The position numbers were made by a program, and so were the translations under genes. Shown piece after piece: positions 1,853 to 19,548 of a DNA stretch of 32,000 bases. Position 1 is the stretch's first letter. Every line of letters begins with the position of its first letter. The stretch is from Rhodobacter capsulatus SB 1003 (GTDB lineage: Bacteria > Pseudomonadota > Alphaproteobacteria > Rhodobacterales > Rhodobacteraceae), in the NCBI RefSeq assembly GCF_000021865.1, contig NC_014034.1, forward strand, positions 2,370,001 through 2,402,000, written 5' to 3'. Below the pieces are notes generated by a model. The model saw only the letters and a list, made by a program, of their open reading frames with translations, was not told the origin of the DNA and did no database searches.

Positions 1853-1904
1853 CCCGGTCTCAGGGCCCGGTCTCAAGGCCCGGTTTCTGGGCCCGGCCTC
1901 AGGG
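1853..1904. repeat. Four tandem copies of a 13-nt unit (CCCGGTCTCAGGG and variants) filling the convergent gap
   Basis: Read directly: cccggtctcaggg / cccggtctcaagg / cccggtttctggg / cccggcctcaggg at 1853, 1866, 1879 and 1892. The last unit contains the response-regulator stop codon (1899-1901). Confidence 0.85.
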
Positions 1905-2951
1905 GCGGCTGGCGCGGCGGAATTCCGAGGGCGAGACGCCGACCTCTTTCTTGAACGCCTTGCAGAAATAATTCGCGTCCTGATAGGCCAGATCCAGCGC
2001 CACGTTCAGGATCGGCAGGCTCGATCCCGCCAGCAGATCCTTGGCCCGGGACATCCGGCGTTCCTTCACATAGGCGATGAAGGTCATGTCCATCTGCCGG
2101 TGAAACAGCCGGCTCAGATAGCAGGCGCTGACATGGGCCTGTTCGGCCGCCTCCTCCAGCGTCACCGTCTTGTGCAGGTTGCGCTCGATATAGTTGCGCA
2201 CCGTCTCGATCCGGGCCGCCGCCCCCGCGCCGGTCTCCTCGCCCGGATCGAAAAGCAGGTCGGTGATGTCGCCGAAGAGTTCCTGCAGCTTGTAGCTGTC
2301 GCGCGGATCAAGCCGCTGCGTCGCCAGCGCCTCGATCCGGCGGGCAAGCGGCGCGGGCAGGCTGCGGCCGCTGCGCGCGATCAGATCGGTCAGCAGCTGC
2401 GCCAGATCCAGCACCGCCTGCCGGGCGGGCCGGTCGCGCTGGCCGTGCAGCGTCTCGATCTGCCGCCGCACCAGCGCCAGACCGTCGCGATAGGCATGGG
2501 CGGCGACCATCCGGCCCAGCTCGGTGCGCAGATCGGGGGCGGCTTCGGGCAACGGAGGCTGTGGCACGGCCGCGACGGGCGCCGCGCTGCGCAGGCAATC
2601 GGTGACGGATTTCAGCAGCGCCTCGGTCCGCACCGGCTTGAGCAGAAAGCCGTCCGCGCGCAGCTGGATCGCCGCCTGCATGATCTCGAAATGATCATAG
2701 GCGGTGATGATCAGCACCTTGGTCGCCGCCGCGCGGTTGCGCAGAAACTCCAGGATTTCCAGCCCGTCCGGCCGCGGGATCCGGATGTCGAGCAGCATCA
2801 GGTCGATCTTGCGGCTTTCGATCAGACGCAAAGCCTCGGCGCCGTTCTTCGCCTCTCCGACCACGCTCACCTCGGGCAGGTTGCGCTCCAGGATCGTGCG
2901 CAGCGCCCGGCGTTCCAGTTCTTCATCCTCGACGATGGCAATATCGAACAT
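1899..2951 (-). CDS. Two-component response regulator, REC domain plus AraC-type HTH (YesN-like)
   Basis: ATG at 2949-2951 gives MFDIAIVEDEELERRAL...DLMLLDIRIPRPDG (receiver domain). The C-terminus is AraC HTH (VTLEEAAEQAHVSACYLSRLFHRQ...YQDANYFCKAFKKEVGVSPSEFR). The upstream extension of track ORF 1899..3311 is Arg/Pro-rich junk that overlaps the kinase gene. Confidence 0.9.
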   Translation of the reverse strand: MFDIAIVEDEELERRALRTILERNLPEVSVVGEAKNGAEALRLIESRKIDLMLLDIRIPRPDGLEILEFLRNRAAATKVLIITAYDHFEIMQAAIQLRADGFLLKPVRTEALLKSVTDCLRSAAPVAAVPQPPLPEAAPDLRTELGRMVAAHAYRDGLALVRRQIETLHGQRDRPARQAVLDLAQLLTDLIARSGRSLPAPLARRIEALATQRLDPRDSYKLQELFGDITDLLFDPGEETGAGAAARIETVRNYIERNLHKTVTLEEAAEQAHVSACYLSRLFHRQMDMTFIAYVKERRMSRAKDLLAGSSLPILNVALDLAYQDANYFCKAFKKEVGVSPSEFRRASRP

Positions 2952-2959
2952 CGGCGGCC

Positions 2960-4300
2960 TCAGAACGCGCAGGGGTCGAAATCGATCGGCAGCCGCAGCC
3001 GGACAAGGGTGCCGCGGCCCTGCCGGAACGGGCTGACGATCTCCAGCCCGTGGCTGTCGCCGAAATATTGCCGCATCCGGCTGTGGATGTTGTGCAGCCC
3101 GATGCTTTTGCGCCCGCCATGATCGGCCTCGCCGCGCAGCACGTCGTGACGGCGTTCGGCATTGATCCCGGGGCCGTTGTCGAGCACGTCGATGATCACG
3201 TCGCCCCCGTCGCGATAGAGCGAAATCTCGATCAGCCCGCCGCTTTCCATCGGCTCGATCGCATAGTTGATGCAGTTTTCCACTAGCGGATGCAGCACCA
3301 TGAAGGGGCACAGGACGCGGTCGAATTCCTCGGGCGCGTCAAGCGTGAAATCGAAGCGATCCCCCATCCGCAGCTTGAGCAGGTAAAGATAGTTGCGCAC
3401 GTGATCGATCTCGGTGCGCAGCGGCACGGATTGCGAGCCCGAGCGCTTGAGCAGATAGCGCATCATGTCGGCAAAGGCATGCACCGTGGTTTCCGTCTCG
3501 GGCGCGCCCTCGACCAGCGCCAGACGGCCGATGGTGTTGAGCACGTTGAACAGGAAATGCGGATTGACCTGATAGGAGAGCGCCTGCAGTTCCGCTTCGC
3601 GCAACAGCCGTTCCAGTTCGGCGCGGCGCTGCGATTCCTCGGCCAGACGCAGGTTTTTCGCGTAAAGCTCCTGCGTCACGCCCTGCGAATAGCTTTCCTC
3701 GACGATATGCGAGGCGATGGTGAAAAGCGAAAACGCCGCCGAGCGCAGCCGGTCGAAGCTGATCTCGCCGATCTGCGCATGCAGCGCCAAAAGCGCGGGA
3801 TCCTCGCTCCACGACCCCTCGGCGGGGAAGATGTTCGACAGATCGACGATGCGCGGATGCCCGCCCGGGGCGAGCTTCACCTGACCGCAGATCACCGCGC
3901 CCAGATATTCGCCGCGCAGATTGATCGGGGCGGCGAAATCGACCAGCTGGCAGTGACATTTGTAGATCGCGGGTTCCCCGGTGGAAAGCGCCGTGCGCCC
4001 GCCCACCGCATCGCAGTGAAAGCAGCGCTCGCGCCAGTCGGGGCGCGAGCGCACCGCCTGACAGAAGGGCGAGAACCCCGAGGGTTTCGTCACCGGCGCC
4101 CCCTCGGGATCGACGATGACCATCGCAACGCCGACGGCGGCGCTGAAATTGTCCTGCACCTTCTGCAGCATCTCGGTGCTCATCAGATCGACAAGCTTGC
4201 GCCGCCGCGCGGCCTTGAATTCCGTCGTCTCCGGCAGCGGACGAAAGCCCGGACCGGCCAGAACCTCCACGGACTGCCCGAAAGGCGTATTACTTCCCAT
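2960..4300 (-). CDS. Soluble sensor histidine kinase with N-terminal PocR-type ligand domain and YesM/LytS-type His_kinase + HATPase core
   Basis: Start chosen at ATG 4298-4300, preceded by GAGGGG. PocR-like segment: LQKVQDNFSAAVGVAMVIVDPEGAPVTKPSGFSPFCQ...CFHCD...YKCHCQLVDFAAPI. H-box region: YQVNPHFLFNVLNTI. ATPase motifs: DNGPGI, GLHNI. No hydrophobic TM segment seen. Its stop lies 8 nt before the regulator start. Confidence 0.85.
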   Translation of the reverse strand: MGSNTPFGQSVEVLAGPGFRPLPETTEFKAARRRKLVDLMSTEMLQKVQDNFSAAVGVAMVIVDPEGAPVTKPSGFSPFCQAVRSRPDWRERCFHCDAVGGRTALSTGEPAIYKCHCQLVDFAAPINLRGEYLGAVICGQVKLAPGGHPRIVDLSNIFPAEGSWSEDPALLALHAQIGEISFDRLRSAAFSLFTIASHIVEESYSQGVTQELYAKNLRLAEESQRRAELERLLREAELQALSYQVNPHFLFNVLNTIGRLALVEGAPETETTVHAFADMMRYLLKRSGSQSVPLRTEIDHVRNYLYLLKLRMGDRFDFTLDAPEEFDRVLCPFMVLHPLVENCINYAIEPMESGGLIEISLYRDGGDVIIDVLDNGPGINAERRHDVLRGEADHGGRKSIGLHNIHSRMRQYFGDSHGLEIVSPFRQGRGTLVRLRLPIDFDPCAF

Positions 4301-4383
4301 GCCAACCCCTCTGCATCGCGTGCGACGAAGACGGGCGGCCCTCCCCCGCGCCAATGAGAGCCCAGCCCGACGCTGGTCTCTGC

Positions 4384-4418
4384 CCGGGGGCCTTGGCGGA
4401 AATTGCCAAAGCCCCCGG
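4384..4418 (-). terminator. GC-rich hairpin between the activase gene and the kinase gene (possible operon terminator or processing stem)
   Basis: ccgggggccttggc (4384-4397) pairs with gccaaagcccccgg (4405-4418): 14 bp with 1 mismatch and a 7-nt loop. There is no U-tract on either strand. Confidence 0.3.
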
Positions 4419-4570
4419 CGGGCGGGGAAATGCCGACTCGCTCGTCGTTGCTGCCGAGCCTTAACGCAGTCGGGCGGGGGAAAACCTGATCTGGCGCAAA
4501 TCCCCCCGCCCTTCCCGGCATCGTGACAAGTTACCGCACCACAAGGATTTTTTCGCCTTTCGGTTGCATC

Positions 4571-5488
4571 TCAGCCACCGATCACGCAGCGCAGCCCCTC
4601 GGCTTCGACCAGCGTTTTCAAGGGCATCACCGCCTCGGGTTTCAGATCGGGCAGCGCCCCCATCGGACAGGTCCGGCCCAGCAGGCGATACTTGTTCTCG
4701 CCAAAGCTGTGATAGGGCAGCAGATGCACCGTATCGACGCCCGGCATCAGCTTGGCAAAGCGGGCAATCGCGGTGATCGCGGCGGGGCTGTCGTTCACCC
4801 CGGGCACCACCGGCACCCGCACCACCGCATGCGTCAGCGACGCCGCAATCAGCGCATTTTCCAGGATCAGCCGGTTGTCGACGCCGGTGTTTTGCTGATG
4901 CACCGCCGGGTCGATCGACTTCAGATCCATCAGCAGGTGATCGACATGCGGGATCACCTCGCGGATCACTTCGCGCGGGGCACAGCCCGTGGTTTCCATC
5001 GCGGTGTTCCAGCCCTGTTCGTGGCAGGCCATCAGCAGCTGTTTCGCAAAGGCCGCCTGCAACAGCGGCTCGCCGCCCGACAGCGTCACCCCCCCGCCCG
5101 AGCGGCGGTAGTGGATCGCATCCTTGCGCAGCTCCTGCATCACCTCGGCCACGCTCATCCTGCGGCCCGCGCGCTTGAGCGCCTCGGTCGGGCAAACCTT
5201 GGTGCAGTCGCCGCAGCGGATGCATTTTGCCCGGTCGACAAAGCCCGGATTGTCACGCGACAGCGCCCCCACCGGGCAGACCGGAATGCATTTGCCGCAG
5301 CCGATGCAGGCCGAGGCGCGGAAGAACAGATCCGGTTCGGTCGATTGCGATTCCGGGTTCGAACACCAGCGGCACGCCAGCGGGCAGCCCTTGAGGAAGA
5401 CGATGGTCCGCACCCCCGGCCCGTCATGGATCGAATAACGCTGGATGTCGAAGACCGTGCCTTCGGCGGTGAAATCGAGCTCGGACAT
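4571..5488 (-). CDS. Glycyl-radical-enzyme activating enzyme (radical SAM, with two ferredoxin-type cluster motifs)
   Basis: ATG 5486-5488 preceded by AAGGA. MSELDFTAEGTVFDIQRYSIHDGPGVRTIVFLKGCPLACRWCSNPE carries the CX3CX2C radical-SAM motif. CIGCGKCIPVCP and CIRCGDCTKVCP are the two ferredoxin-type motifs. The longer track ORF (to 5887) overlaps the upstream shell gene. Confidence 0.9.
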   Translation of the reverse strand: MSELDFTAEGTVFDIQRYSIHDGPGVRTIVFLKGCPLACRWCSNPESQSTEPDLFFRASACIGCGKCIPVCPVGALSRDNPGFVDRAKCIRCGDCTKVCPTEALKRAGRRMSVAEVMQELRKDAIHYRRSGGGVTLSGGEPLLQAAFAKQLLMACHEQGWNTAMETTGCAPREVIREVIPHVDHLLMDLKSIDPAVHQQNTGVDNRLILENALIAASLTHAVVRVPVVPGVNDSPAAITAIARFAKLMPGVDTVHLLPYHSFGENKYRLLGRTCPMGALPDLKPEAVMPLKTLVEAEGLRCVIGG

Positions 5489-5532
5489 GAGGGTATTCCT
5501 TTCGTGGCTCTGGCCGGGGCCGGGGCTGCGGC

Positions 5533-5832
5533 TCAGAAGGCGGGGGCCTGCGCGGCAATCGCATCCATCGCGGCGCGGACCGAGGCGGTCTCGCCCAGCA
5601 CGGCCAGCGTCGTCGTCGTTTGCGGGCAGGTGCCGGACAGCTCGACCGTCAGCACATGGGCGGATTTGCCGGCGATATCGGCGAAATAGAACAGGTCGGG
5701 GACACTTGCCTGCACGAAGCCGATCGCCGAGACCCGGTTTTCCTCGATCCATTTGCGCACCCCCGGCGCGACGCGGCGGGCGAGCATCTCCAGAAGATCG
5801 GGGGCGGGGGCGTTGATGATGCGGATTTGCAT
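5533..5832 (-). CDS. pduU: Circularly permuted BMC shell protein, PduU/EutS-like
   Basis: The 99-aa product aligns by eye with PduU: [14 protein letters not shown] ~ [41 protein letters not shown] ~ [28 protein letters not shown], and [16 protein letters not shown] ~ VVLTGDVSAVEYALKQV. AAGGA RBS upstream of ATG 5830-5832. Confidence 0.7.
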   Translation of the reverse strand: [99 protein letters not shown]

Positions 5833-5853
5833 GGCAAGTGTCCTTTTCGGGTC

Positions 5854-7455
5854 TCAGCGCACGTTCAGCGCTTCGACCATCACGCATTTGCGGCGGCGGG
5901 CGAAGGAGCGGGCAGAGGTCAGCCCCTCGCCTGTCGGCCCGGCGATGGTGAAGGTGGCATAGCCCTCGCCGCCGACGCCAAGCCCGGCATAAGAGGGGCC
6001 GTTCTTCACGAAGATCGTGGTCTGGATGAGCTTCGCCATCTTCGTCAGCTTGCGCACATTGGTCGAATGCATGATCGCGGTATGGCGGTTGCCGTGTTCA
6101 AGAACGACCGCCAGATCAATGGCTTCGTCGACGCATGCCACGCGCACCAAAGGCAGGATCGGCATCATCAGCTCTTCGACGACAAAGGGGTGATCCTTGC
6201 CCGTCTCGATCAGGATGATCCGGGTTTCGGGCGCGGCTTTGACACCGATCTTGTCGAGCAACCAAACCGCCGATTTGCCGACGCAGCCCGTCTGCGGCCC
6301 GCCCTTTTCGGTCAGCACCAGTTTTTCCAGCGCGGCGATCTGCGCCGGATCGGTCAGCCGATGCGCGCCGTTGCGGACCAGCTCCGCGGTCAGGAAATCG
6401 GCGATTTCCGCCACCGCGATCAGCTCCTTTTCCGCCACGCAGGGCATGTTGTTGTCGAACGAACAGCCGTTGACGATATCCAGCGCCGCTTTCGGAATGT
6501 CGGCGGTTTCGTCAACCACCACCGGCGGATTGCCCGCCCCTGCCCCGATCGCCTTCTTGCCCGAGGACAGCACCGTCTTCACGATCGCCGGGCCGCCCGT
6601 CGCCACCAGCATCCGCACCTTGGGATGCGCCATCATCGCATTCGTGTTCTCGATCGAGGGCGCCTGCACGGTGACGACAAGGTTCGCCGGTGCCCCCAGC
6701 GCCGCCAGCTTGCGGTTGATCAGCTTGATCGCCAGCAGGCTGACGCCGCGCGCGCGCGGATGGGGGCTGAAGACCACCGCATTGCCCGCGGCCAACATCC
6801 CGATCGCGTTGCAGATGATGGTTTCGGTCGGGTTCGTCGTCGGCGTGATCGCCCCGATGACGCCATAGGCGGACAGCTCGACCAGCGTCAGCCCGTCATC
6901 GCCGCTTTGCGCTTCGGTGGTCAGGTCTTCGATGCCCGGGGTCTTTTCCGCCGCCAGCCGGTTCTTGATGATCTTGTGCGCGACATTGCCCATGCCGGTC
7001 TGTTCGACCGCCAGCCGCGAGATCCGCTCCAGCAGCGCGGGGTTCAGAAAGACCTCGCGGAGGCCGTCGATGAAGCGCTTGCGCGCCGACATCGAACAGA
7101 ACAGATATTGCCGCTGCGCCTCGGCGGCGGCCTCCACGGCCGCATCCATCGTGGCAAAGATGCCGTCGCCCACGGTTTCGGCCTGATCGTCGGGGATCGA
7201 CAGGCAATTTGCGGGCGCGGTGCAGCTGCCCGCCTTGCAGCAGGAACAGTTCTTCTCGCCCAACTCGCGCGTCAGGATGCCGCCGATGATGTCATCGATC
7301 GGATCGGCGGGCTTCGGGGCTTCCCGGACACAGCCCTGCGTGCCGGGTTTTGCCAGATCCGTCAGGGCCTTGGTCACCGTCGCCTCAAGGCTTTTCGGGG
7401 CGGTGTAGCCGCTCAAGACCCGGGCCACGGCGTCTTCGATATCGCTGTCTTTCAT
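5854..7455 (-). CDS. pduP: CoA-acylating aldehyde dehydrogenase (PduP/EutE family) with a ~95-aa N-terminal extension
   Basis: ATG 7453-7455 preceded by AAGGACAAGGA. The catalytic domain begins near GDGIFATMDAAVEAAAEAQRQY. It contains ...FDNNMPCVAEKE (catalytic Cys) and the GxGxG-like GAGAGNPP. The start overlaps the stop of the upstream gene (ATGA at 7452-7455). Confidence 0.88.
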   Translation of the reverse strand: MKDSDIEDAVARVLSGYTAPKSLEATVTKALTDLAKPGTQGCVREAPKPADPIDDIIGGILTRELGEKNCSCCKAGSCTAPANCLSIPDDQAETVGDGIFATMDAAVEAAAEAQRQYLFCSMSARKRFIDGLREVFLNPALLERISRLAVEQTGMGNVAHKIIKNRLAAEKTPGIEDLTTEAQSGDDGLTLVELSAYGVIGAITPTTNPTETIICNAIGMLAAGNAVVFSPHPRARGVSLLAIKLINRKLAALGAPANLVVTVQAPSIENTNAMMAHPKVRMLVATGGPAIVKTVLSSGKKAIGAGAGNPPVVVDETADIPKAALDIVNGCSFDNNMPCVAEKELIAVAEIADFLTAELVRNGAHRLTDPAQIAALEKLVLTEKGGPQTGCVGKSAVWLLDKIGVKAAPETRIILIETGKDHPFVVEELMMPILPLVRVACVDEAIDLAVVLEHGNRHTAIMHSTNVRKLTKMAKLIQTTIFVKNGPSYAGLGVGGEGYATFTIAGPTGEGLTSARSFARRRKCVMVEALNVR

Positions 7456-7925
7456 TGTCCTTGTCCTTCGCTCGGGGTCGCGCCCCAATGTGCCGCAATC
7501 GCCTTTCGCGCGATCTGCATGTCTTCTTCGACCGTGCCGCCGCTGATGCCGATGGCGCCCAGCACCGCCGCCCCCGCCCGGATCGGCAGCCCGCCGCCAA
7601 AGGGGACGACCGGCCCGCCCGCGGGGCCAAGCCCCGCCAGCATGCCGCCCGCGGCGGTCAGGGCCCCCAGCGCATCGGTGCCCATCCGGTAGGCCGCCGC
7701 CGTCCAGGCCTTGGAGGGCGCGAGCGTGACCGAAGCGGGCAGCGCCCCCTCCATCCGGTGAAACAGCAGCGCCGTGCCCGCCGCGTCACAAAAGGCGATG
7801 CAGACCGGAACGCCCAGCCGCCGCGCCTCAAGCTCGGCCACGGCCGCCATCCGGGTGACGTCGCACAGCCGCAGCGGGCGGCGGGCGGCCAATTCGGTCC
7901 AAAGGATCGTGTCGATCAGCGCCAT
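7452..7925 (-). CDS. GlcG / DUF336 (PduO C-terminal-domain-like) putative heme-binding protein
   Basis: The 157-aa product has the family signature ...GGGLPIRAGAAVLGAIGISGGTVEEDMQIARKAI. GGAGGG RBS lies inside the end of the upstream BMC-P gene. A 4-nt ATGA overlap joins it to the aldehyde dehydrogenase. Confidence 0.8.
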   Translation of the reverse strand: MALIDTILWTELAARRPLRLCDVTRMAAVAELEARRLGVPVCIAFCDAAGTALLFHRMEGALPASVTLAPSKAWTAAAYRMGTDALGALTAAGGMLAGLGPAGGPVVPFGGGLPIRAGAAVLGAIGISGGTVEEDMQIARKAIAAHWGATPSEGQGQ

Positions 7926-7928
7926 GGC

Positions 7929-8210
7929 TCAGCCCTCCGTCCGGTCGTGGCATTCGACGGTATCGACGATGCCGACGATACCGGCATCGACCACCGACTG
8001 GCCCAGCATTCCCGCCAGCCGTCCGGCGCTGCCGGTGGTGACGATGACGGTCTCGCCATCGCCCGCGCTGACGGTATCGACGGCGATCTGCGTCTCGCCT
8101 TCGGCATTCAGCCGGGCGTCAAGGCGGATGACGATCAGCAGTTTCGCCCCCGACAGGCTTTGGTCCTTGGTGGTGGCGACGACGCGGCCGATGACTTTTG
8201 CCAGATACAT
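7929..8210 (-). CDS. pduN: BMC-P pentameric vertex protein (EutN/PduN/CcmL family)
   Basis: MYLAKVIGRVVATTKDQSLSGAKLLIV...DTVSAGDGETVIVTTGSAGR is the classic EutN/CcmL pattern. AGGAG RBS upstream. Confidence 0.9.
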   Translation of the reverse strand: MYLAKVIGRVVATTKDQSLSGAKLLIVIRLDARLNAEGETQIAVDTVSAGDGETVIVTTGSAGRLAGMLGQSVVDAGIVGIVDTVECHDRTEG

Positions 8211-8218
8211 GATCGCTC

Positions 8219-12123: not shown

Positions 12124-12212
12124 GACTTTCTCCTTGCCTTCCGGCGTTCAAGATGTTGGTTCGATTGAGGAAACGGGTATCTTCGTGCTGATCTGCCAGT
12201 GTGCCCCCCTCC

Positions 12213-13352
12213 TCATCCCCCGGCCCGATCGAGCAGCATTTCAAGATCTGCCAGCGCGGGACGGCGCGGATTGCCCGCGGTGCAGGCATCCGCAAAGGCG
12301 GCTGCCGCAAGGTCGGGGATCGCCCGACGATACTCCTCGATCGCGACGCCAAGGCCGCGCAGCGAGGAAGGGATGCCGAAGCGCGCATTCAGCGCCTCGA
12401 TCGCCCGGATCAGCGCAACGACACCCGCCCGCGTGCCCGGCACGTCAAGCCCCACCCGGGCGGCGATGCGGGCGTAGCGGCTGGCGGTCTCGCGGCAGCC
12501 GGGCGCGTCGTCCGACAGACCGGCGTTCCAGGCGATGACATGGGGCAAGAGCACCGCGTTGATGCGGCCATGCACCAGATGCAGCCGGCCGCCGATCGCA
12601 TGGGCCAGCCCGTGGTTGAGGCCCAGCCCCGCCTCGGTAAAGGCCATGCCCGCCAGGCACGAGGCCTGATGCATCGCATCGCGGGCGGCCAGATCGTTGC
12701 CGTTGTCGTAAGCCCGGGGCAGCGCCGCAAAGGCCAGTTCCAGCGCCTTTTCGGCAAAAGCGTCGGTGAAGTTCGAGGCGCCGCGCGCCACCACCGCCTC
12801 GATCGCATGGGTGATCACATCCATGCCGGTATCGGCGGTGACCCTGGGCGGTGCGGTGCGCACGAATTCCGGGTCAAGGATCGCCACATCGGGGATCAGG
12901 TCGTTGGAAATCAGCGGGAATTTCCGGTTGTTGGCAGGGTCCGAGATCACCGCGAAGGCGGTGACCTCGGAGCCGGTGCCGCTGGTCGTCGGGATCGCAA
13001 CCAGACGGATCGGATGGCTGGGGTCGATGCCGCGCACCACCGCCAGGATGGCTTTCGCCGCATCGATGGGCGAGCCGCCGCCCAGCGCCAGCACCACATC
13101 GGGGCGGAAGTCGGCGAACAGGCGGGCGCCTGCGGAAACGGTGGCGAGCGGCGGCTCGGGGATGGCTTCGGCGAAGATCTTGACGGTGCAGCCGTCCAGA
13201 TGCGCCAGAACGCGATCAAGCGGACCCGAGCGGGCCATGAATTCATCGGTCACGATGCCGACGCGCTGGCCGCGATAGGCCTGCAAGCGTTCCAGCAGCC
13301 CTTCGCCGAAGACGATTTCGGTCCGCGGAGAGAAACTATGATAGCGGGTCAT
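12213..13352 (-). CDS. pduQ: Iron-containing (group III) alcohol dehydrogenase, PduQ/EutG-like
   Basis: ATG 13350-13352. Family motifs seen: ALGGGSPIDAAKAI, PTTSGTGSEVT, and HAIEA...HGLAHAIGG metal-ligand histidines. The longer track ORF (to 13565) overlaps the GRE gene. Confidence 0.85.
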   Translation of the reverse strand: MTRYHSFSPRTEIVFGEGLLERLQAYRGQRVGIVTDEFMARSGPLDRVLAHLDGCTVKIFAEAIPEPPLATVSAGARLFADFRPDVVLALGGGSPIDAAKAILAVVRGIDPSHPIRLVAIPTTSGTGSEVTAFAVISDPANNRKFPLISNDLIPDVAILDPEFVRTAPPRVTADTGMDVITHAIEAVVARGASNFTDAFAEKALELAFAALPRAYDNGNDLAARDAMHQASCLAGMAFTEAGLGLNHGLAHAIGGRLHLVHGRINAVLLPHVIAWNAGLSDDAPGCRETASRYARIAARVGLDVPGTRAGVVALIRAIEALNARFGIPSSLRGLGVAIEEYRRAIPDLAAAAFADACTAGNPRRPALADLEMLLDRAGG

Positions 13353-13382
13353 CGGAACACCTGTCCGTGAGGGGTGAAAGGG

Positions 13383-13430
13383 CCCGGTCGGGCTGACGCG
13401 AGGCGGGAGGAGACGGCCCGCCCGACCGGG
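13383..13430 (-). other. Intercistronic stem-loop between the GRE and ADH genes
   Basis: cccggtcgggc (13383-13393) is the exact reverse complement of gcccgaccggg (13420-13430): an 11-bp stem with a 26-nt loop, in the 112-nt gap. No U-tract. Confidence 0.4.
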
Positions 13431-13464
13431 AGGCTGGCCCCGCGTTGCCGCGGGACCGGCGGTG

Positions 13465-15987
13465 TCAGAAGGCCTGTTCGGTCCGGCTGATGATGTCGTC
13501 CTGCACCTCTTTCGCGAGGACGACGAACTGCGCCGAATAGCCCGCCACCCGCACCACGAGGTCACGATAGTCCTCGGGGTTTTTCTGTGCTTTCAGAAGG
13601 GTTTCGCGGTCGATCACGTTGAACTGCACATGCATGCCCTTGTGATCGAAGTAAGACCGCACCAGCGCGGCGAAGTTCTGCAACCCGGCGTCCCCTGCCA
13701 GAGCGGAGGGCAGGAATTTCTGGTTGTAGAGCGTGCCGTTCGAGGCGATGAAGTGGTCGAGTTTCGCCACCGAATTCGCCGCGGCGGTCGGGCCGAGCCG
13801 GTCCTTGCCCTGCCGCGGCGAGACGCCATCGGCCAGCGGCAGTTTCGCCGGGCGGCCGTCGGGCAGCGCGCCCACGTCCTTGCCGAAAAGCACGTTCGCC
13901 GAGACCGGATAGATCCCTGCCTGGAACTGGCCCCCGCGCGGGTTGGTGTATTTCTCCACTTCCTTGCAGTAGATCTGCGCGCATTTCCGGGCGATCAGGT
14001 CGACGTCGTCATTGTCGTTCCCGAAGGCTTCGGCGCTGTCGAGCAGGCGGCGGATGCCGTCATATTTCGACGAGGCGGCAGGCGCGGAGCCGGTCGAAAG
14101 CGTGCGATAGACCTCGTCCTTGAGCGCGGCGACATCCAGGCTGGCATTCGAGGCCAGCACTTTCTTGACCGCTTCGTAGATCTGGCTTTCGCTCATCTCG
14201 GCGGGCGCATTCGCCCCGGTGACCATCCCGAAGTTCGCGTCGAGCGCTTCCTTCAGTTCGGCCATCGTCAGCTTCTTGTCGTCCCAGACGAATTTCTTCA
14301 TCGCATAGACCGAGTCGCCGGTGTCGGCGACGCCGAAGGCCTGCGGGCCGGTGAAGTTGTAGATCGCGCCCCCTTCCTGCACCGACTTGCCGCGGCCCAT
14401 GCAGTCATCGACCATCGCCGAGAGGAACGGCAGCGGCGCCCGTTCGGCATGGGCGATGTCGACACAATTGTCGGCCTCGGCCAGGTATTTGACGAAGAAC
14501 GACATCTGCCCGGTGAAGGCGGCGTAGAAATCCTCAAGCGAGGTCCAGTCCTTGGCATCGCCGGTGACCGGGCCAAGCTGGGTATCGCCGACCTTGCCGT
14601 TGTTGAGCGTGATTTCCAGCACCTTCGCCACGTTGAAGAAGGCCGCGTCGTGCCAGCCCTCGGTGCGGTGGATCGCCTGCGGTTCGACGCAGCCGACGAT
14701 GCCGTAATCGCGGGCATCGGCCAGCGAAACACCGCGGTTTTGCAGCGAGGGGATGATCACCTCGTCGTTGTAGACGGCCGGAACCCCCAGCCCCAGACGC
14801 ACGACCTCGGCGGCACGGTGCAGGAATTCATCCGGCGTGCCCTGCCAGACCCGGATCGAGAAGGACGGCGCGGGCAGACGCACATGGGCCACGGCTTCCA
14901 TGCACATGTAGGACACGTCGTTCGTCGCATCGAGCCCGTCTTCGGTCTGACCGCCGACGCAGAGGTTCTGGAACACCGCATAGCCGGCAAAGGCTTGCGC
15001 CGAGACCTCGTCGCGGGTCTTGTTGACGTCGTTCAGCTTGATCCAGATGCAGTCGATCAGTTCCTGGGCAAATTCGCGGCTGATCGCGGTATCGGCTTTC
15101 AGGAACGGATACATGTATTGGTCGAAGCGGCCGGGCGAGATCGAATGGCCCGAGGATTCGATCTGCAGCATGCATTGTACGAACCACATCGTCTGGCAGG
15201 CTTCCCAGAAGGTCGTGGCGCCATGTTCGGGCACGCGGCGGCAGTTCTTGGCGATCTGCTCGAGTTCCGCCTTGCGGGTCGGGTTGGGGCAGGCCCGCGC
15301 CAGCTCCTCGGCCTTGTCGGCATAGCGGTTGGCAAAGCCGATCGCGGCGGTATAGGCGATGATGACGGCGGTGTAGAACTGCTGTTTCTTGATCGTGTCG
15401 GGGTCGCGTTCATCCAGCACTTCGCGGCGCTTGATCGCCTCGATGATGACACCGCGGAAGCCGGTTTTCAGGATCTTGCCATAGTCGACGCAGACATGGC
15501 CGACGCCGCCATAGAAATAGTTGCCCACCGTGAAGACGCCGTTGGCGATGCAATCCTTCGCCTTTTTCGACATGTAGGAGGCGGCAAGATCGGCGGTGGT
15601 GCGGCCGGGCCAGTATTTGAACGCCTCATGCAGGGCGGCGGCGGTTTCCTTGGGGATTTCGAACGGGTCGGCGACGCGGGTCGCCATGGTGTCGAATTCC
15701 TTTTCCACCCAGTCGAAGCTGAATTCGGGGCAGATCTCGGTCGAGCGCGGGTTGACGGTGATCGAGCCGACCACAAGTTCATCGTCGCGGATGGTGACCG
15801 GCAGTTCGGCGAAGATCTTTTCCACCACCCTGGCGCGGCGCAGGATCGGCGACAGGCCCTCGGTCACCTTGTAGGCCTCGGTGGCCAGCACGGCGCGCTC
15901 GGCCTCGACATGGGGCCGGGCATTCAGGATCTGGTTCTTCAGCCGCGTGATGCGGTCGGTCGGTTTGGTGAAGCCCTTCTCAATCAT
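13465..15987 (-). CDS. Glycyl radical enzyme of the dehydratase/lyase clade; probable B12-independent 1,2-propanediol dehydratase
   Basis: ATG 15985-15987 preceded by GGAGGA. Thiyl loop: IVGCVEPQ (single Cys followed by Glu). The C-terminal glycyl motif is VVRVAGYSAQF, with the Gly codon at 13540-13542. 840 aa. Confidence 0.9.
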   Translation of the reverse strand: MIEKGFTKPTDRITRLKNQILNARPHVEAERAVLATEAYKVTEGLSPILRRARVVEKIFAELPVTIRDDELVVGSITVNPRSTEICPEFSFDWVEKEFDTMATRVADPFEIPKETAAALHEAFKYWPGRTTADLAASYMSKKAKDCIANGVFTVGNYFYGGVGHVCVDYGKILKTGFRGVIIEAIKRREVLDERDPDTIKKQQFYTAVIIAYTAAIGFANRYADKAEELARACPNPTRKAELEQIAKNCRRVPEHGATTFWEACQTMWFVQCMLQIESSGHSISPGRFDQYMYPFLKADTAISREFAQELIDCIWIKLNDVNKTRDEVSAQAFAGYAVFQNLCVGGQTEDGLDATNDVSYMCMEAVAHVRLPAPSFSIRVWQGTPDEFLHRAAEVVRLGLGVPAVYNDEVIIPSLQNRGVSLADARDYGIVGCVEPQAIHRTEGWHDAAFFNVAKVLEITLNNGKVGDTQLGPVTGDAKDWTSLEDFYAAFTGQMSFFVKYLAEADNCVDIAHAERAPLPFLSAMVDDCMGRGKSVQEGGAIYNFTGPQAFGVADTGDSVYAMKKFVWDDKKLTMAELKEALDANFGMVTGANAPAEMSESQIYEAVKKVLASNASLDVAALKDEVYRTLSTGSAPAASSKYDGIRRLLDSAEAFGNDNDDVDLIARKCAQIYCKEVEKYTNPRGGQFQAGIYPVSANVLFGKDVGALPDGRPAKLPLADGVSPRQGKDRLGPTAAANSVAKLDHFIASNGTLYNQKFLPSALAGDAGLQNFAALVRSYFDHKGMHVQFNVIDRETLLKAQKNPEDYRDLVVRVAGYSAQFVVLAKEVQDDIISRTEQAF

Positions 15988-16045
15988 TCTATCCTCCAGG
16001 CGGTGGAGGCGTCCCGGCGGGGTCTGGTCCCGCCGGAAAGCCATG

Positions 16046-16636
16046 TCAGTTCAGGATGTCGGGGTCGATGAGCGAAACGAACGCGCGCATCAGTGTCGGA
16101 TGCCCGGGCCAGGCCGGTGCGGTCGCAAGATTGCCGTCGATCACGGTTTGCTCCGGCGCGGTTGCGACGAAGTGGGCCCCTGCCGCCGTCACTTCCGGTT
16201 CGACGGCCGGATAGGCCGTCAACCGACGTCCGCGCACCACGTCGGCGGCGGTCAGGAGCTGCGCGCCATGGCAGATCGCGGCCACAGGCCGGTTCTCCGT
16301 CATGAAGGCCCGCACGATGGCCAGGACCTGCGCATCCAGTCGCAGGTATTCGCAGGCACGGCCACCGGCGAGATAGAGACCGGCATGATCCTCGGGGCTG
16401 ACACTGGCAAAGCTTGCCGTCAGACCGAACAGATGGCCGGGTTTTTCCGAATAGGTCTGATCGCCCTCGAAATCATGGATCGCGGTGCGGATCGTTTCGC
16501 CCTTGCGCTTGCCCGGGCAGACGGTCTCGACGGTGAAACCCAGCATGCTCAGCGCCTGAAACGGCACCATCACTTCATAATCTTCAGAGTAATCTCCAAC
16601 GATCATCAGGATTTTGTTTTGGCGGGGGCGTTTCAT
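16046..16636 (-). CDS. DJ-1/PfpI-family protein (class-I glutamine-amidotransferase-like fold); first gene of the BMC operon
   Basis: ATG 16634-16636 preceded by AGGAAA. KILMIVGDYSEDYEVMVPFQAL...AAICHGAQLL is the nucleophile-elbow Cys-His signature of PfpI/YhbO-type proteins. 196 aa. Confidence 0.85.
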   Translation of the reverse strand: MKRPRQNKILMIVGDYSEDYEVMVPFQALSMLGFTVETVCPGKRKGETIRTAIHDFEGDQTYSEKPGHLFGLTASFASVSPEDHAGLYLAGGRACEYLRLDAQVLAIVRAFMTENRPVAAICHGAQLLTAADVVRGRRLTAYPAVEPEVTAAGAHFVATAPEQTVIDGNLATAPAWPGHPTLMRAFVSLIDPDILN

Positions 16637-16698
16637 CTGATTTTCCTGGGCTGCCGTTTTCGGCGTCTGGCAAAGGAATAGTCCCGGAAAGCCAAAAG

Positions 16699-16720
16699 GG
16701 TCAACGCGAGCCCCTTGACC
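16699..16720. promoter_or_regulatory. Everted-repeat element GGTCAA-N10-TTGACC (copy A), proximal to the BMC operon
   Basis: Read directly. Its reverse complement matches copy B (17020-17041) at 19/22 positions, including a perfect 14-mer (16698-16711 versus 17029-17042). On the minus strand, TTGACC-N18-TATTCC would place a start site about 30 nt upstream of the DJ-1 ATG. Confidence 0.45.
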
Positions 16721-16788
16721 ACAAAGGGGAATATCTTGCCCTGCGCTTTTGCGCCGTGGTTTTTCCCTGAAAATACGGGGATTTTGCC

Positions 16789-16802
16789 GATCCGGCCGGA
16801 TC
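16789..16802. promoter_or_regulatory. Perfect 14-bp palindrome GATCCGGCCGGATC
   Basis: Read directly in the divergent intergenic region. Confidence 0.3.
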
Positions 16803-16814
16803 TTGCAAAGCGGA

Positions 16815-16868
16815 CCCGGGACAAGAAAAGACAGATGCCGGGTGTTTTCTTGTCCTTGCCCGGACAAG
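16815..16868. promoter_or_regulatory. Three-arm GGACAAG / CTTGTCC repeat cluster (operator, or alternative-pairing leader RNA)
   Basis: ggacaagaaaa (16819-16829) pairs with ttttcttgtcc (16845-16855). cttgtcc (16849-16855) also pairs with ggacaag (16862-16868) across a 6-nt spacer. The middle arm can therefore pair with either neighbour. Confidence 0.4.
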
Positions 16869-17019
16869 TCCCGACTGCCGCCCGCGCGGCCCTGACAGGC
16901 GGAAACCGCGCAAAAGTGCCGTCCCGGCCCGCAGGCAAATCATTTTTCCATTTTAATACAGACACTTGCACAGGAAAGCGACTCGGCCGCACGGCGCATC
17001 GCAAGAAACTACCCGCGAA

Positions 17020-17041
17020 GGCCAAGCCGCTCGCGTTGACC
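17020..17041. promoter_or_regulatory. Everted-repeat element GGCCAA-N10-TTGACC (copy B) overlapping a candidate -35 for the membrane-protein/ackA unit
   Basis: TTGACC (17036-17041), then an 18-nt spacer, then TAATTT (17060-17065) is a plausible sigma-70-type promoter on the + strand. The element is the inverted copy of 16699-16720. Confidence 0.4.
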
Positions 17042-17125
17042 CGAAAGCCCCCGCAGCGGTAATTTCAGCACCAATCGACCGCCCGCGTCGGAAGGAAACC
17101 CGCGCCACTCCAAAGGGAATTCGCG

Positions 17126-17148
17126 CATCGGAAAGGGATTTTCCGATG
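17126..17148. promoter_or_regulatory. Perfect 9-5-9 palindrome CATCGGAAA-gggat-TTTCCGATG
   Basis: Read directly, 130 nt upstream of the membrane-protein ATG. It contains one of four AAAGGGAAT-like boxes (16672, 16723, 17112, 17132). Confidence 0.4.
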
Positions 17149-17277
17149 CCCTGTTTTCGCACGCGCCTTTTCCGCGCCCGGTCGTTTTCGCGGTCCTCCG
17201 GCCGCGCCCTTTCAAACCGCATCAAGACCCCGGACATACTCCAGTCGGATCCGCCCGGAATATACAAGGAGACCAGA

Positions 17278-18189
17278 ATGACACTGCTTGGTTTGCTCGT
17301 CGCTTTTGGCGGCGGAATATTCGGGGCCGCGATCGGCGCGCTGCCCGCCTTCGCCTTTGTCGGCTTCCTGACGATGATCGGCGTCGCGATCCAGCTTGCG
17401 CTTGGCGCGGGCACGACCGATTTCTTCGGCATCCCCTTTGGCGCCTTTGGCCCGCATGCGGGCGGCTTTGCGGCGGGGGTCGCCGCGGCGGCCTATGCGG
17501 CGAAAAAGGGCAAGCTTGACTCGGGGCGCAACATCGTCACCGCGGGCATGGGGCTGAACGCGCCCGACGTGCTTTTGGTGGGCGGCATCTTCGGGCTGAT
17601 CGGCTATCTGATCTTCTGGGCGCTGCAGCTGGTGCCGTCCTTCGGCCCGGGCCTGGCCTTTTCCGACCTGCCCGCCGTCGGCGTGGTGATCTCGGCCTTC
17701 CTCGCACGCTTCCTGTGGGGCACCTGCGGCTTTTGCGGCAAGGCCGATCCGGGCCGCGGCTTCTTTCACCCGACCGATGCGACGAAATGGCTGGTGTTCC
17801 AGTCAAGCCCGGCGCAGATCGCGGTGATCGGTCTGGGCGGCGGCTTGCTTGGCGCCTGGCTGGGCGTGACCCATGGCGTGCCGGGCGCGCTGCTGGCCTT
17901 CGGCATCGCGGCCTCCTCGCTCTTCTTCCTGACGCTGGGCGTGCTGATCCCGGTCACCCACCACATCATGCTGCCGGCCGCGCTGGCCGGTGTGGCTTCG
18001 GGCTCGGTGATCTGGGGCGCGGTGGTCGGCATCCTCTCGGCCTTCCTCGGCGAGTTCTTTGCCCGCGCCTTCCTGTGCCACGGCGACACCCATGTCGATC
18101 CGCCCGCCTGCGCCATCGCCGTGATGACCTTTGCCATCAACCTTCTGACCGCGGTGGGCTTCTGGACACTCGCTCCTCTGCCGGTCTGA
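17278..18189 (+). CDS. Uncharacterised polytopic membrane protein (303 aa, Gly/Ala-rich TM helices, internal repeat)
   Basis: ATG 17278 preceded by AAGGAGA at a 7-nt spacing. The sequence is hydrophobic throughout, with about 8-9 predicted helices by eye. No MIP NPA motifs. The track ORF start at 16966 lies in the intergenic region. Confidence 0.8.
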   Translation: MTLLGLLVAFGGGIFGAAIGALPAFAFVGFLTMIGVAIQLALGAGTTDFFGIPFGAFGPHAGGFAAGVAAAAYAAKKGKLDSGRNIVTAGMGLNAPDVLLVGGIFGLIGYLIFWALQLVPSFGPGLAFSDLPAVGVVISAFLARFLWGTCGFCGKADPGRGFFHPTDATKWLVFQSSPAQIAVIGLGGGLLGAWLGVTHGVPGALLAFGIAASSLFFLTLGVLIPVTHHIMLPAALAGVASGSVIWGAVVGILSAFLGEFFARAFLCHGDTHVDPPACAIAVMTFAINLLTAVGFWTLAPLPV

Positions 18190-18222
18190 TCCGGGGGCGG
18201 CCCCTTTCCCCTCCCCCGCAGC

Positions 18223-18252
18223 GGCGGTGCGACATCCCCCCGTCGCACCGCC
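18223..18252 (+). terminator. Perfect 11-bp hairpin followed by GATTT, between the membrane-protein gene and ackA (attenuator or partial terminator)
   Basis: ggcggtgcgac (18223-18233) / gtcgcaccgcc (18242-18252), with loop atcccccc. A second GC hairpin, ggcagcccc/ggggctgcc, lies at 18261-18280. Confidence 0.4.
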
Positions 18253-18303
18253 GATTTCCCGGCAGCCCCCCGGGGCTGCCCTTGCATCCAAGGACAACCG
18301 ACC

Positions 18304-19548
18304 ATGATCCTGACCATCAATTGCGGCAGCTCCAGCCTGAAATATCAACTCCATGCCCCCGATCTGAGCCATGTGATCGCCTCGGGCCTGATCGCCCGCA
18401 TCGGCGAGCCCGAGGGCACGACCGATCACTGGGTCGGCCACCGCGGCGAGCATCACCGCCGCGCCATCCCCGATCACCGCGCCGCCTTCGCGCTGATGAT
18501 GGAGAACCTGACGAACCCCGAATATGACGTGATCGAATGCCCGGGCGCGATCACCGCCATCGGACACCGCGCGGTGCATGGCGGGGCGATCTTCTTCGGC
18601 TCGGTGCTGGTCGATGACGCGGTGATGGCGGCGCTGCGCGCCTGCGCGACCTTTGCGCCGCTGCACAATCCCTGCAACATCATCGGCATCGAGGAAGCGC
18701 AGCGGATGTTCCCCGGCGTGCCGAATGTCGTCGTCTTCGACACCGCCTTTCACCAGACCATTCCCGAACGCGCCCATGCCTATGCCCTGCCCTATGAGCT
18801 GACGCAGAAACACGGCATCCGCCGCTACGGTTTTCACGGCACCTCCTGCCGCTATGTCTCGCGCAGCGCGGCCGAGCTGCTGAACCGCCCGCTGGACAGC
18901 CTGTCGATGGTGGTCTGCCATCTGGGCAACGGCGTCACGCTCGACGCGGTCAAGGGCGGGCAGTCGATCGACACCTCGATCGGGTTCGGCACTTTTGGCG
19001 GCGTGCCGATGGGCACCCGCAGCGGCGATTTCGACCCGGCGATCATCTTCCATCTGGTGCGCGAGGCCGGGCTGAGCCTGACCGAGATCGAGGATATCTG
19101 CTACACCAAAAGCGGCCTGCTGGGCCTGTCGGGGCTGTCGAACGACATGCGCGAAGTGATGGCGGCGGCCGATGCGGGCAATGACCGCTGCCAGCTGGCG
19201 ATTGACGTCTTCGTCTATCAGATCCGCAAGACGATCGGCGCCTATGCGGCGGCGATGGGCGGGATCGACGCGCTCGTCTTCACCGCGGGCATCGGCGAGA
19301 ACAGCGCCCGGGTGCGCGCGATGATCTGCGAGGATCTGGGCTTTCTGGGCATCTCGATCGACGCGCGGGCGAATGCGATCGCGCGCGGCGGCCATCCGAA
19401 CATCAGCGCGGCGGGCGCAAGGGTGGCGACGCTTGTGGTGCCGACGGACGAGGAACGGATGATCGCGATCGACACCGCGGCTTTGACGGCCGCCGCCTCG
19501 GCGAGGCAGCCGGGGCAAGACCTGGCCTTCGCGCTGGCCGCCCAATGA
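18304..19548 (+). CDS. ackA: Acetate/propionate kinase
   Basis: MILTINCGSSSLKYQL..., GHRAVHGG, RYGFHGTS and FTAGIGEN are canonical AckA motifs. 414 aa. AAGGA RBS. Confidence 0.92.
   Translation: MILTINCGSSSLKYQLHAPDLSHVIASGLIARIGEPEGTTDHWVGHRGEHHRRAIPDHRAAFALMMENLTNPEYDVIECPGAITAIGHRAVHGGAIFFGSVLVDDAVMAALRACATFAPLHNPCNIIGIEEAQRMFPGVPNVVVFDTAFHQTIPERAHAYALPYELTQKHGIRRYGFHGTSCRYVSRSAAELLNRPLDSLSMVVCHLGNGVTLDAVKGGQSIDTSIGFGTFGGVPMGTRSGDFDPAIIFHLVREAGLSLTEIEDICYTKSGLLGLSGLSNDMREVMAAADAGNDRCQLAIDVFVYQIRKTIGAYAAAMGGIDALVFTAGIGENSARVRAMICEDLGFLGISIDARANAIARGGHPNISAAGARVATLVVPTDEERMIAIDTAALTAAASARQPGQDLAFALAAQ

Follow-up and report, generated by a model that had tools for sequence, protein, structure and literature searches.

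A glycyl-radical microcompartment locus of type GRM3 in Rhodobacter capsulatus SB 1003 and its assignment to B12-independent 1,2-propanediol use

The genes rcc02199-rcc02213 of Rhodobacter capsulatus SB 1003 have been described as a B12-independent glycyl-radical 1,2-propanediol microcompartment cluster (Schindel & Bauer 2016, PMC5359404), and related systems are known from Rhodopseudomonas palustris BisB18 (PMC5311937) and from Escherichia coli CFT073, where the GrpP/GrpQ two-component system is required for propanediol induction (PMC11724981). Here we examine this locus in a stretch of 32,000 nucleotides from the SB 1003 genome (the window, to which all coordinates refer). The genes rcc02197-rcc02214 form, almost certainly, a chromosomal glycyl-radical microcompartment (GRM) locus of the GRM3 type that serves B12-independent 1,2-propanediol use. 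Publications on SB 1003 already cover the locus together with its class, substrate and control by RegA; none of these is new, as a first-pass annotation made from the sequence had supposed of the core. Against the published GRM3/'GRP' cluster rcc02199-rcc02214 (PMC5359404; Schindel et al. 2019, J Bacteriol 201:e00343-18), the locus, proteins, gene list and annotation order are the same, with no difference. Four genes that were published as hypothetical are given families here, namely rcc02200 (GrpU), rcc02202 (DUF336), rcc02204 (flavoprotein-like) and rcc02213 (DUF7973).

A bacterial microcompartment (BMC) locus is recognized by at least one PF00936 protein and a PF03319 protein clustered with enzymes, and four of the former and one of the latter lie here within 7 kb. 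The glycyl radical enzyme (GRE), together with its radical S-adenosylmethionine (SAM) activase (PF04055), places the locus among the GRMs, and the aldehyde core of GRM3 is represented by an acylating aldehyde dehydrogenase (AldDH) with an N-terminal extension, a PduL phosphotransacylase and an alcohol dehydrogenase. The first-pass annotation had listed a shell, a GRE with activase, an aldehyde branch, a sensor and a kinase; Pfam and NCBIfam profiles and motif reading located every one of them at the place proposed. The enzymes and shell proteins are as follows.

13465-15987, minus strand: GRE, 1,2-propanediol dehydratase, 840 residues, rcc02211 (Pfam PFL-like, PF02901, E 3e-242; Gly_radical, PF01228, E 1.4e-37)
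4571-5488, minus strand: GRE activating enzyme, radical SAM, rcc02199 (TIGR02494, 367 bits against a cut-off of 174)
5854-7455, minus strand: CoA-acylating propionaldehyde dehydrogenase of the PduP type, rcc02201 (PRK15398, 711 bits against a cut-off of 403)
9763-10410, minus strand: PduL phosphate propanoyltransferase, rcc02206 (Pfam PTAC, E 1.9e-73)
12213-13352, minus strand: Fe-alcohol dehydrogenase (Pfam Fe-ADH, E 8.6e-44; ADH_Fe_C, E 2.2e-52)
18304-19548, plus strand: acetate/propionate kinase AckA, rcc02214 (Pfam Acetate_kinase, E 7.4e-139; TIGR00016, 455 bits against a cut-off of 293)
11839-12123, minus strand: PduA-type BMC-H, major shell protein, rcc02209 (Pfam BMC, E 8.8e-29; NCBI name PduA)
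11007-11816, minus strand: PduB-type tandem-domain BMC-T, rcc02208 (PRK15415, 430.6 bits against a cut-off of 173, full length, E 2e-129)
10429-10986, minus strand: tailed BMC-H with a C-terminal tail of about 95 residues rich in Pro, Ala and Glu, rcc02207 (Pfam BMC, E 2.1e-23, residues 5-81)
7929-8210, minus strand: BMC-P vertex protein EutN/PduN, rcc02203, ADE85933.1 (Pfam EutN_CcmL, E 6e-26, full length)
5533-5832, minus strand: GrpU, permuted BMC-H of 99 residues, rcc02200 (PDB code 4olp, E 1.3e-22 over residues 1-97; Pfam BMC, E 2.8e-7)

Seven ancillary families have been listed for GRM3 (acetate kinase, peptidase of the DJ-1/PfpI type, flavoprotein, EutJ, two-component pair, DUF336 and SAM synthetase; Axen 2014), and six of these, which are common but not obligatory in the type, occur at the locus, the flavoprotein being recognized by predicted fold only. 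No SAM synthetase was found among the open reading frames (ORFs) of the window, and ORF and domain scans of the locus revealed neither PduS/PduT nor a flavodoxin. Most GRM3 loci carry PduS/PduT, and GRM3b almost always has GrpU (Ferlez 2019); the presence of GrpU without PduS/PduT corresponds to the profile described for GRM3b. Subtypes GRM3A, GRM3B and GRM3C are distinguished as well (Sutter 2021), the last of these names being used for a published synthetic-shell system. Four BMC-H proteins are expressed in that system, whereas the R. capsulatus locus has three. The synthetic-shell system was reportedly built from the R. palustris BisB18 locus, to which later publications give the name GRM3C.

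The GRM3 locus of BisB18 (PMC5311937) shares with R. capsulatus the succession EutJ, flavoprotein-like protein, EutN, DUF336, AldDH, GrpU and activase, followed by the PocR kinase and the receiver/AraC regulator. Sequence identities between the two are 68% for AldDH, 66% for the activase, 66% for DUF7973 and 61% for AckA, the crystal structures of BisB18 AldDH and PduL are the best PDB matches of their R. capsulatus counterparts, and the R. capsulatus GRE carries an insertion at the position of the internal encapsulation peptide published for the BisB18 GRE. The two loci differ in that BisB18 has a SAM synthetase between activase and kinase, has AckA and DUF7973 at the end with the regulators, where R. 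capsulatus has them divergent and upstream, and lacks the Cys-rich linker of the R. capsulatus AldDH. In the grp (GRM3) locus of E. coli CFT073 and other Enterobacterales (Lundin et al. 2020; PMC11724981) the same families recur (GrpU, DJ-1 directly upstream of the GRE, DUF336, EutJ, PduL, AckA, DUF7973 and the PocR kinase/AraC pair), with a GRE about 75% identical to that of R. capsulatus, but the gene order is different, the activase comes right after the GRE, the regulators are divergent and the flavoprotein-like gene is barely recognizable (27-29% identity or not detected).

The B12-dependent Pdu system of Salmonella has the same substrate, the same PduP/PduL/alcohol dehydrogenase/kinase logic, a shell of PduA, PduB and PduN types and sensing by a PocR domain. 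Its signature, however, is PduCDE with a reactivase and B12 recycling instead of a GRE with a radical-SAM activase, its sensor is the one-component PocR instead of a PocR histidine kinase with a separate regulator, and its PduF, PduS and PduT are missing from the R. capsulatus locus. Among the criteria for GRM3 is mutual exclusion with a B12-dependent PDU locus within one genome, of which the window covers 32 kb. The GRM5 system of Roseburia inulinivorans employs a GRE with the same chemistry and pocket, including Phe and Val at both discriminating positions (see below); its identity to the dehydratases of the GRM3 type is reported as 52%. Fuculose-phosphate aldolase, lactaldehyde reductase and PduS/PduT are extra components of GRM5, which is without GrpU.

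The substrate assignment rests chiefly on the GRE. Both motifs that had been noted in the 840-residue enzyme, a GCVEP thiyl loop (with Cys433) and an RVAGYS glycyl motif, were read in its translation. Its best match in the PDB is the R. planticola GRM3 propanediol dehydratase (PDB code 9rco; 1401 bits), with lower scores for the C. butyricum glycerol dehydratase (PDB code 1r8w; 1049 bits), the R. inulinivorans propanediol dehydratase (PDB code 5i2a; 931 bits) and several CutC structures (about 497 bits). Residues 1-586 are colinear with glycerol dehydratase without net gaps and its numbering therefore applies directly. Cys433, Glu435, His164, His281, Ser282 and Asp447 are conserved in the alignments, and the catalytic roles of Cys433, Glu435 and His164 are known from the literature on homologs. 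Position 339 is Phe in the R. capsulatus enzyme and in both crystallized propanediol dehydratases (9rco and 5i2a) but Tyr in glycerol dehydratase; Val695 aligns with Ser642 of glycerol dehydratase and is Val in both propanediol dehydratases. The GRE of GRM3 is of the 1,2-propanediol dehydratase clade, with a hydrophobic pocket for the C3 methyl group. The residue pattern is read from the alignment; that positions 339 and 695 form the methyl pocket is reported by LaMattina et al. 2016. Comparison of the pocket with those of propanediol dehydratase, glycerol dehydratase and CutC, a check proposed with the first-pass annotation, thus returns the propanediol pattern (Phe339 and Val695) and no match to CutC; the glycerol dehydratase and choline lyase identities were rejected on the strength of the pocket residues and the model cut-offs. 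The earlier reading of a B12-independent diol-catabolizing GRM3 organelle, as in R. capsulatus and BisB18, agrees with the GRE sequence and pocket, with the AldDH and PduL matches and with the literature.

The nearest competing assignment would make the GRE a B12-independent glycerol dehydratase and the compartment a producer of 3-hydroxypropionaldehyde from glycerol. Glycerol dehydratase is indeed the second-best solved match, colinear over the 586 residues given above, one paper's introduction loosely lists R. capsulatus and C. butyricum together as having a 'B12-independent glycerol dehydratase', and the BisB18 AldDH is able to use 3-hydroxypropionyl-CoA (PMC5311937). Both positions at which glycerol dehydratase differs from the two crystallized propanediol dehydratases are nevertheless in the propanediol state, glycerol was not turned into any product by the BisB18 GRM3 core (Zarzycki et al. 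2017, PMC5311937), the GRM3 enzyme of R. planticola took up propanediol and ethylene glycol in crystals and left glycerol unbound, and glycerol dehydratase itself has no internal insertion and is not associated with a microcompartment, all of which makes this assignment very improbable. We give practically no credence to a choline trimethylamine-lyase or another 1,2-eliminase (for hydroxyproline, sulfopropanediol or isethionate) in a GRM1/GRM2-like or novel-substrate compartment: the fold and the CxE loop are common to these families, all of which match the GRE at E < 1e-120, but its scores fall far below every equivalog cut-off (CutC, 582 against 1050 bits; HypD, 621 against 1100; the sulfopropanediol dehydratase HpfG, 682 against 1000), the CutC structures score at about a third of the level of the GRM3 propanediol dehydratase, the enzyme has no N-terminal extension of the GRM1/GRM2 kind and the locus content fits the GRM3 ancillary list.

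It is also conceivable, although we judge it improbable, that the locus is real but serves chiefly another small diol or aldehyde, such as ethylene glycol, or that it is a module gained by horizontal transfer, hardly useful to a phototroph and silenced by RegA. Ethylene glycol is also bound by GRM3 and GRM5 dehydratases, the cluster is strongly repressed in the wild type, and an acquired module would be in keeping with the lower GC content of the GRE/DJ-1 segment, the plasmid-borne homologous locus in C. sphaeroides WS8N and the split or shortened accessory genes of some R. capsulatus genomes. Against this, the locus is intact and almost invariant over R. capsulatus strains, and the literature reports propanediol-dependent expression and metabolism for SB 1003; such a reading would moreover alter the ecology of the system and not its mechanism.

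An insertion of about 53 residues in the GRE (residues 587-643) has no counterpart in glycerol dehydratase, coincides with a gap (592-638) in the alignment with the R. planticola chain and lies where an intramolecular encapsulation peptide has been described in BisB18 (PMC5311937). It comprises two stretches of about 15 residues (SESQIYEAVKKVLAS and LDVAALKDEVYRTLS) between linkers rich in Ala, Ser and Gly. In GRM3 an internal insertion of about 60 residues with two helices takes the place of an N-terminal encapsulation peptide, and the GRE has such an insertion, the two stretches being putative helices.

The aldehyde branch recognized in the first-pass annotation, a PduP-type AldDH, PduL and an Fe-alcohol dehydrogenase, is borne out by profiles for all three members. 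AldDH has an N-terminal extension of about 95 residues, a putative encapsulation region, with the catalytic domain starting near residue 97; its best PDB match is the BisB18 GRM3 AldDH (PDB codes 5jfl and 5jfn; E 6e-228) and the catalytic NNxPCVAEKE and NRHTAIMHS stretches are kept. Residues 69-84 of its linker (7204-7251, minus strand) form a Cys-rich stretch, NCSCCKAGSCTAPANC, which is common to R. lacus and Neorhizobium and absent in BisB18, Enterobacterales and other alphaproteobacterial orthologs, where a C-C-W or C-x-W remnant is found; it may be a metal or disulfide site. PduL is matched best by the BisB18 enzyme (PDB code 5cuo; E 1.5e-84) from residue 24 onwards and is preceded by a short, putatively amphipathic N-terminal extension. 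The Fe-alcohol dehydrogenase reached no NCBIfam equivalog cut-off.

In the activase, the CPLACRWC radical-SAM motif and, within an insert, two ferredoxin-type motifs of the form CxxCxxCxxxCP (CIGCGKCIPVCP and CIRCGDCTKVCP) were all read in the translation, as had been proposed. Its gene is the last of the operon, separated from that of the GRE by eleven genes in the alphaproteobacterial version of the locus, and directly follows the GRE gene in the Enterobacterales and Firmicutes loci examined.

The shell was expected to consist of five proteins of four architectures, and all five were found; the permuted one, however, taken at first for a PduU/EutS-like protein, is most probably GrpU, the BMC-H protein with a putative Fe-S pore, to judge from its match to 4olp. 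Its Cys-lined pore motif, GTCPQT (residues 67-72; 5617-5634, minus strand), is to be compared with the published G-X-C-P-Q-N/H. Cys-Pro-Gln is kept throughout, and the motif ends in Thr in Rhodobacter and Aliiruegeria but in His in other orthologs.

Fourteen genes on the minus strand run from 16636 down to 4571 with intergenic gaps of -4 to 112 nucleotides, so that the co-directional arrangement with short gaps or overlaps first described for them stands. The junction between EutJ and the flavoprotein-like gene becomes a 1-nucleotide overlap once the start of the latter is set to the independently called ATG at 8917. A gap of 270 nucleotides separates the activase gene from that of the PocR kinase, and a further 8 nucleotides lie between the kinase stop and the ATG of the regulator at 2951. 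Protein lengths are the same in independent calls on other R. capsulatus genomes (840, 379, 94, 269, 185, 215, 278, 232, 93, 157, 533, 99, 305 and 446 residues), and nine of the ten proteins queried are identical to R. capsulatus entries (range ADE85930-ADE85944), two of them (EutN and EutJ) being listed for SB 1003 only; the tenth query was an alternative GRE of 859 residues, for which a start is possible 19 codons upstream, the form on record having 840. The AldDH start is the ATG at 7455 and not the TTG at 7488, and for the DJ-1/PfpI gene newer annotations use the TTG at 16867 (273 residues) and older ones the ATG at 16636 (196 residues).

The window is 99.88-99.98% identical in DNA to R. 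capsulatus genomes over 16-22.5 kb, 94% identical to strain SP108 and about 80-85% identical to R. lacus. Further afield, a scan of species-representative genomes gave at least 595 GRE relatives, and 18 proteins of the locus were mapped onto 45 of 80 kept loci. R. lacus, Breoghania, Aliiruegeria and Cohaesibacter have the same order, from the divergent DUF7973 via DJ-1 to the activase, as does Neorhizobium up to the contig limit, and AckA was detected upstream too in three of the alphaproteobacterial loci with this order. In Roseospira the order from DJ-1 to the activase is kept, with one extra PduA copy, and neither upstream gene was detected. Firmicutes loci have a shorter set without GrpU, and most of them are also without PduL, EutJ and the flavoprotein-like gene.

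Control of the locus involves the following features.

1899-2951, minus strand: response regulator with receiver and AraC-type HTH, GrpQ-like (Response_reg, E 2.7e-26; HTH_18, E 2.3e-22; 46% identity to the BisB18 locus regulator)
2960-4300, minus strand: sensor histidine kinase with an N-terminal PocR domain, GrpP-like, 446 residues (PocR, E 6e-47; His_kinase, E 4.9e-26; HATPase_c)
16637-17277, no strand: divergent intergenic control region of 641 bp, of lower GC content than its surroundings

The pair at the end of the locus had been described as a PocR kinase and an AraC regulator on the same strand; both are present, but the second is a two-component response regulator with an AraC-type output and not a plain AraC protein. 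No membrane segment is evident in the kinase on reading of its sequence. Divergence of the membrane protein and the acetate/propionate kinase from the operon was likewise described correctly, both lying on the plus strand across the 641-bp region. This region contains an inverted repeat at 16819-16855 (GGACAAGAAAAGAC, nine nucleotides, GTGTTTTCTTGTCC) and an element GGTCAA-N10-TTGACC at 16699-16720, both kept in R. lacus, and a perfect hairpin with 10-bp arms at 17125-17149 that is kept within R. capsulatus only. These elements are candidates for operators to which RegA or the AraC-type regulator would bind. An Rfam scan of the whole window, including the control region, gave no riboswitch or RNA family. 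A scan of 1700-19800 for sigma-70 promoters and terminators gave no more matches than shuffled sequence and is therefore uninformative for this high-GC alphaproteobacterium.

RegA represses the cluster, which shows the largest expression changes in the data set (Schindel & Bauer 2016, PMC5359404). In the regA mutant, rcc02199-rcc02214 are derepressed together, 76-251-fold, in a supplementary table whose genes match the present map one for one: 89-fold for rcc02199 (pflA1, activase), 76 for rcc02200 (hypothetical, here GrpU), 130 for rcc02205 (eutJ), 141 for rcc02206 (pduL), 196 for rcc02208 (pduB), 251 for rcc02211 (pflD, the GRE), 248 for rcc02212 (ThiJ/PfpI), 207 for rcc02213 (hypothetical, membrane) and 96 for rcc02214 (ackA2) (PMC5359404). 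The first-pass annotation had named lack of co-expression as grounds for its own refutation, and these data show the genes shifting together. Derepression is strongest beside the divergent intergenic region, which fits promoters located there; the activase is among the least derepressed operon genes. Loss of the long isoform of AerR also derepresses the cluster. Schindel et al. 2019 (J Bacteriol 201:e00343-18, PMC6379579) is cited in other papers as having found that GRM3 turns 1,2-propanediol into propanol and propionate, and as having carried out RNA-seq in the presence of propanediol.

Five further proteins of the locus are accessory.

16046-16636, minus strand: DJ-1/PfpI family protein, first operon gene, rcc02212 (Pfam, E 1.9e-40; TIGR01382, 162.6 bits against a cut-off of 139)
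8917-9753, minus strand: EutJ-family ATPase of actin/Hsp70 fold, putative chaperone, rcc02205, ADE85935.1 (PRK15080, 346 bits against a cut-off of 182, E 1.2e-103)
7452-7925, minus strand: DUF336/HbpS-like protein, similar to the PduO C-terminal domain, rcc02202 (Pfam PF03928, E 6.8e-33)
8219-8917, minus strand: diverged flavoprotein-like protein, 232 residues, rcc02204 (AlphaFold2 and Foldseek)
17278-18189, plus strand: DUF7973 (PF25928) polytopic membrane protein, NCBI 'permease', rcc02213 (homolog annotation)

The DJ-1/PfpI protein is the 'peptidase' of the GRM3 catalogue, whose role has been called unclear (Axen 2014). It retains the Cys-His nucleophile elbow (AAICHGAQ), and its gene stays directly upstream of the GRE in alphaproteobacterial, gammaproteobacterial and Firmicute GRM3 loci despite the shuffled order of the remaining genes.

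For rcc02204 there was no significant match (E <= 0.001) in Pfam, NCBIfam or PDB sequences, PF02441 being reached at E 0.017. The AlphaFold2 model (pLDDT 86.4) has UbiX/HFCD flavoproteins as its top Foldseek matches (E 5.6e-6; TM score 0.45-0.55), with an extra C-terminal β-α-β unit on this fold, and rcc02204 would therefore be the 'flavoprotein' of the GRM3 catalogue. By sequence search its homologs are confined to alphaproteobacterial relatives and diverge fast; its identity to the BisB18 copy is only 35%, and few genes of the locus are conserved as poorly. A nearly invariant N-terminal helix, LDRILIDLLSDRI, resembles an encapsulation peptide, and a stretch ARDGxCP...R.R..RG is invariant.

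The membrane protein rcc02213 likewise gave no significant match (E <= 0.001) in local Pfam and NCBIfam scans. It has 1047 homologs at E <= 1e-5, PF25928 being assigned to all 120 of those listed, and in Alphaproteobacteria, Enterobacterales and a part of the Firmicutes such homologs have GRM3 loci as neighbors. The protein is a candidate for transport of propanediol or propionate and would then take the place of PduF.

Taken together, these components suggest the following scheme. 1,2-Propanediol would enter the cell, possibly via the DUF7973 protein, and be sensed by the soluble PocR kinase, which would phosphorylate the receiver/AraC regulator and so activate the divergent promoters in 16637-17277, as has been shown for GrpP/GrpQ of E. 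coli CFT073; under photosynthetic conditions RegA is reported to keep the cluster repressed. By homology, the shell would be assembled from the PduA-type and tailed BMC-H proteins, the PduB BMC-T, GrpU and EutN pentamers. The GRE would be encapsulated by its internal two-helix insertion, AldDH by the long N-terminal extension and PduL by the short N-terminal helix, with the activase riding on the GRE, as found in vitro for BisB18. As in homologs, and with the residues concerned kept here, the activase would place a radical on the Gly of RVAGYS, Cys433 would take a hydrogen from C1 of propanediol, and Glu435 and His164 would promote loss of water, with propionaldehyde released inside the shell. 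According to the standard metabolosome scheme, AldDH would then yield propionyl-CoA and NADH, the Fe-alcohol dehydrogenase would reduce a second propionaldehyde to 1-propanol and recycle NAD+, PduL would form propionyl-phosphate and recycle CoA, and the cytoplasmic kinase would produce propionate and ATP. Expression in SB 1003 is reportedly seen in the dark under anaerobic conditions with propanediol, the products being propionaldehyde, propanol and propionate.

We found nothing that contradicts this account, which nevertheless has its limits. The compartment is said to have given no protection from propionaldehyde toxicity under the conditions used, which is at odds with the textbook rationale for such organelles, although not with the pathway. 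In a hydrophobic-moment scan, the proposed encapsulation helices were no outliers within their own proteins, and the scan was therefore not used as evidence. For R. capsulatus itself we infer how the shell is assembled, which signals direct encapsulation, what ligand is sensed and what DUF7973 does. Finally, with no SAM synthetase, PduS/PduT or flavodoxin encoded at the locus, the supply of electrons to the activase is not accounted for. The locus had been called self-contained; its parts are there, but the term is too strong because these proteins are missing and no electron donor for the activase was identified, and assimilation of propionyl-CoA is probably encoded elsewhere in the genome. 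The latter is attributed to methylmalonyl-CoA pathway genes, and none of these was found among the ORFs of the window.

A path for these electrons might nevertheless be encoded at the locus. The glycyl radical would be made, or remade, within the closed compartment by electrons that cross the shell through the pore Fe-S cluster of GrpU and pass by way of rcc02204 to the three-cluster activase. The general idea is in the literature, as an 'electron shuttle' (Axen 2014) and as GrpU serving as a docking site (Ferlez 2019), while the specific chain is proposed here only. We put it forward tentatively and think it unlikely to be correct as drawn; the canonical flavin-binding signature is weak in rcc02204 and its Pfam match is below threshold. 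The Cys-rich AldDH linker of Rhodobacter might be a further metal site in such a relay. If true, the relay would do here what other systems leave to a PduS/PduT pair or a cytosolic flavodoxin.

The locus stands between genes for polysaccharide modification, with a glycosyltransferase/FkbM methyltransferase fusion at one flank and sulfotransferases at the opposite one, and a luciferase-like monooxygenase and an ABC transporter of the NMT1 type are encoded further along (flanking genes at 7-1848, 19685-20602 and 25683-29749, plus strand; the sulfotransferase, monooxygenase and transporter genes fall in 19.6-32 kb). None of them shows an evident tie to propanediol use. GC content is 0.61-0.64 in the segment of the GRE and DJ-1 genes and 0.68-0.70 in the flanks, and in Cereibacter sphaeroides WS8N the homologs of rcc02204 and the PduA shell protein bear the annotation plasmid-encoded; the low GC content and the plasmid copies hint at horizontal mobility of the locus. 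In one R. capsulatus genome (CP198954.1; locus L081, 7797-8710) DUF7973 is broken into 203 and 80 residues, and in another (CP198942.1; locus L083, 15002-15532, 17073-17717 and 18063-18536) the tailed BMC-H has 176 residues, the flavoprotein-like protein 214 and no DUF336 gene is called; either strain decay or sequencing error may be responsible. One deposited GRE has just 527 residues.

The enzymes of the locus have close homologs that have been crystallized and kinetically characterized. The locus remains useful as a model, amenable to genetics, in which to study questions that concern GRMs in general: how electrons reach an encapsulated activase, with GrpU and the flavoprotein-like protein as the components to consider, what role the DJ-1/PfpI protein plays, whether DUF7973 is a carrier and which ligand the PocR kinase binds.

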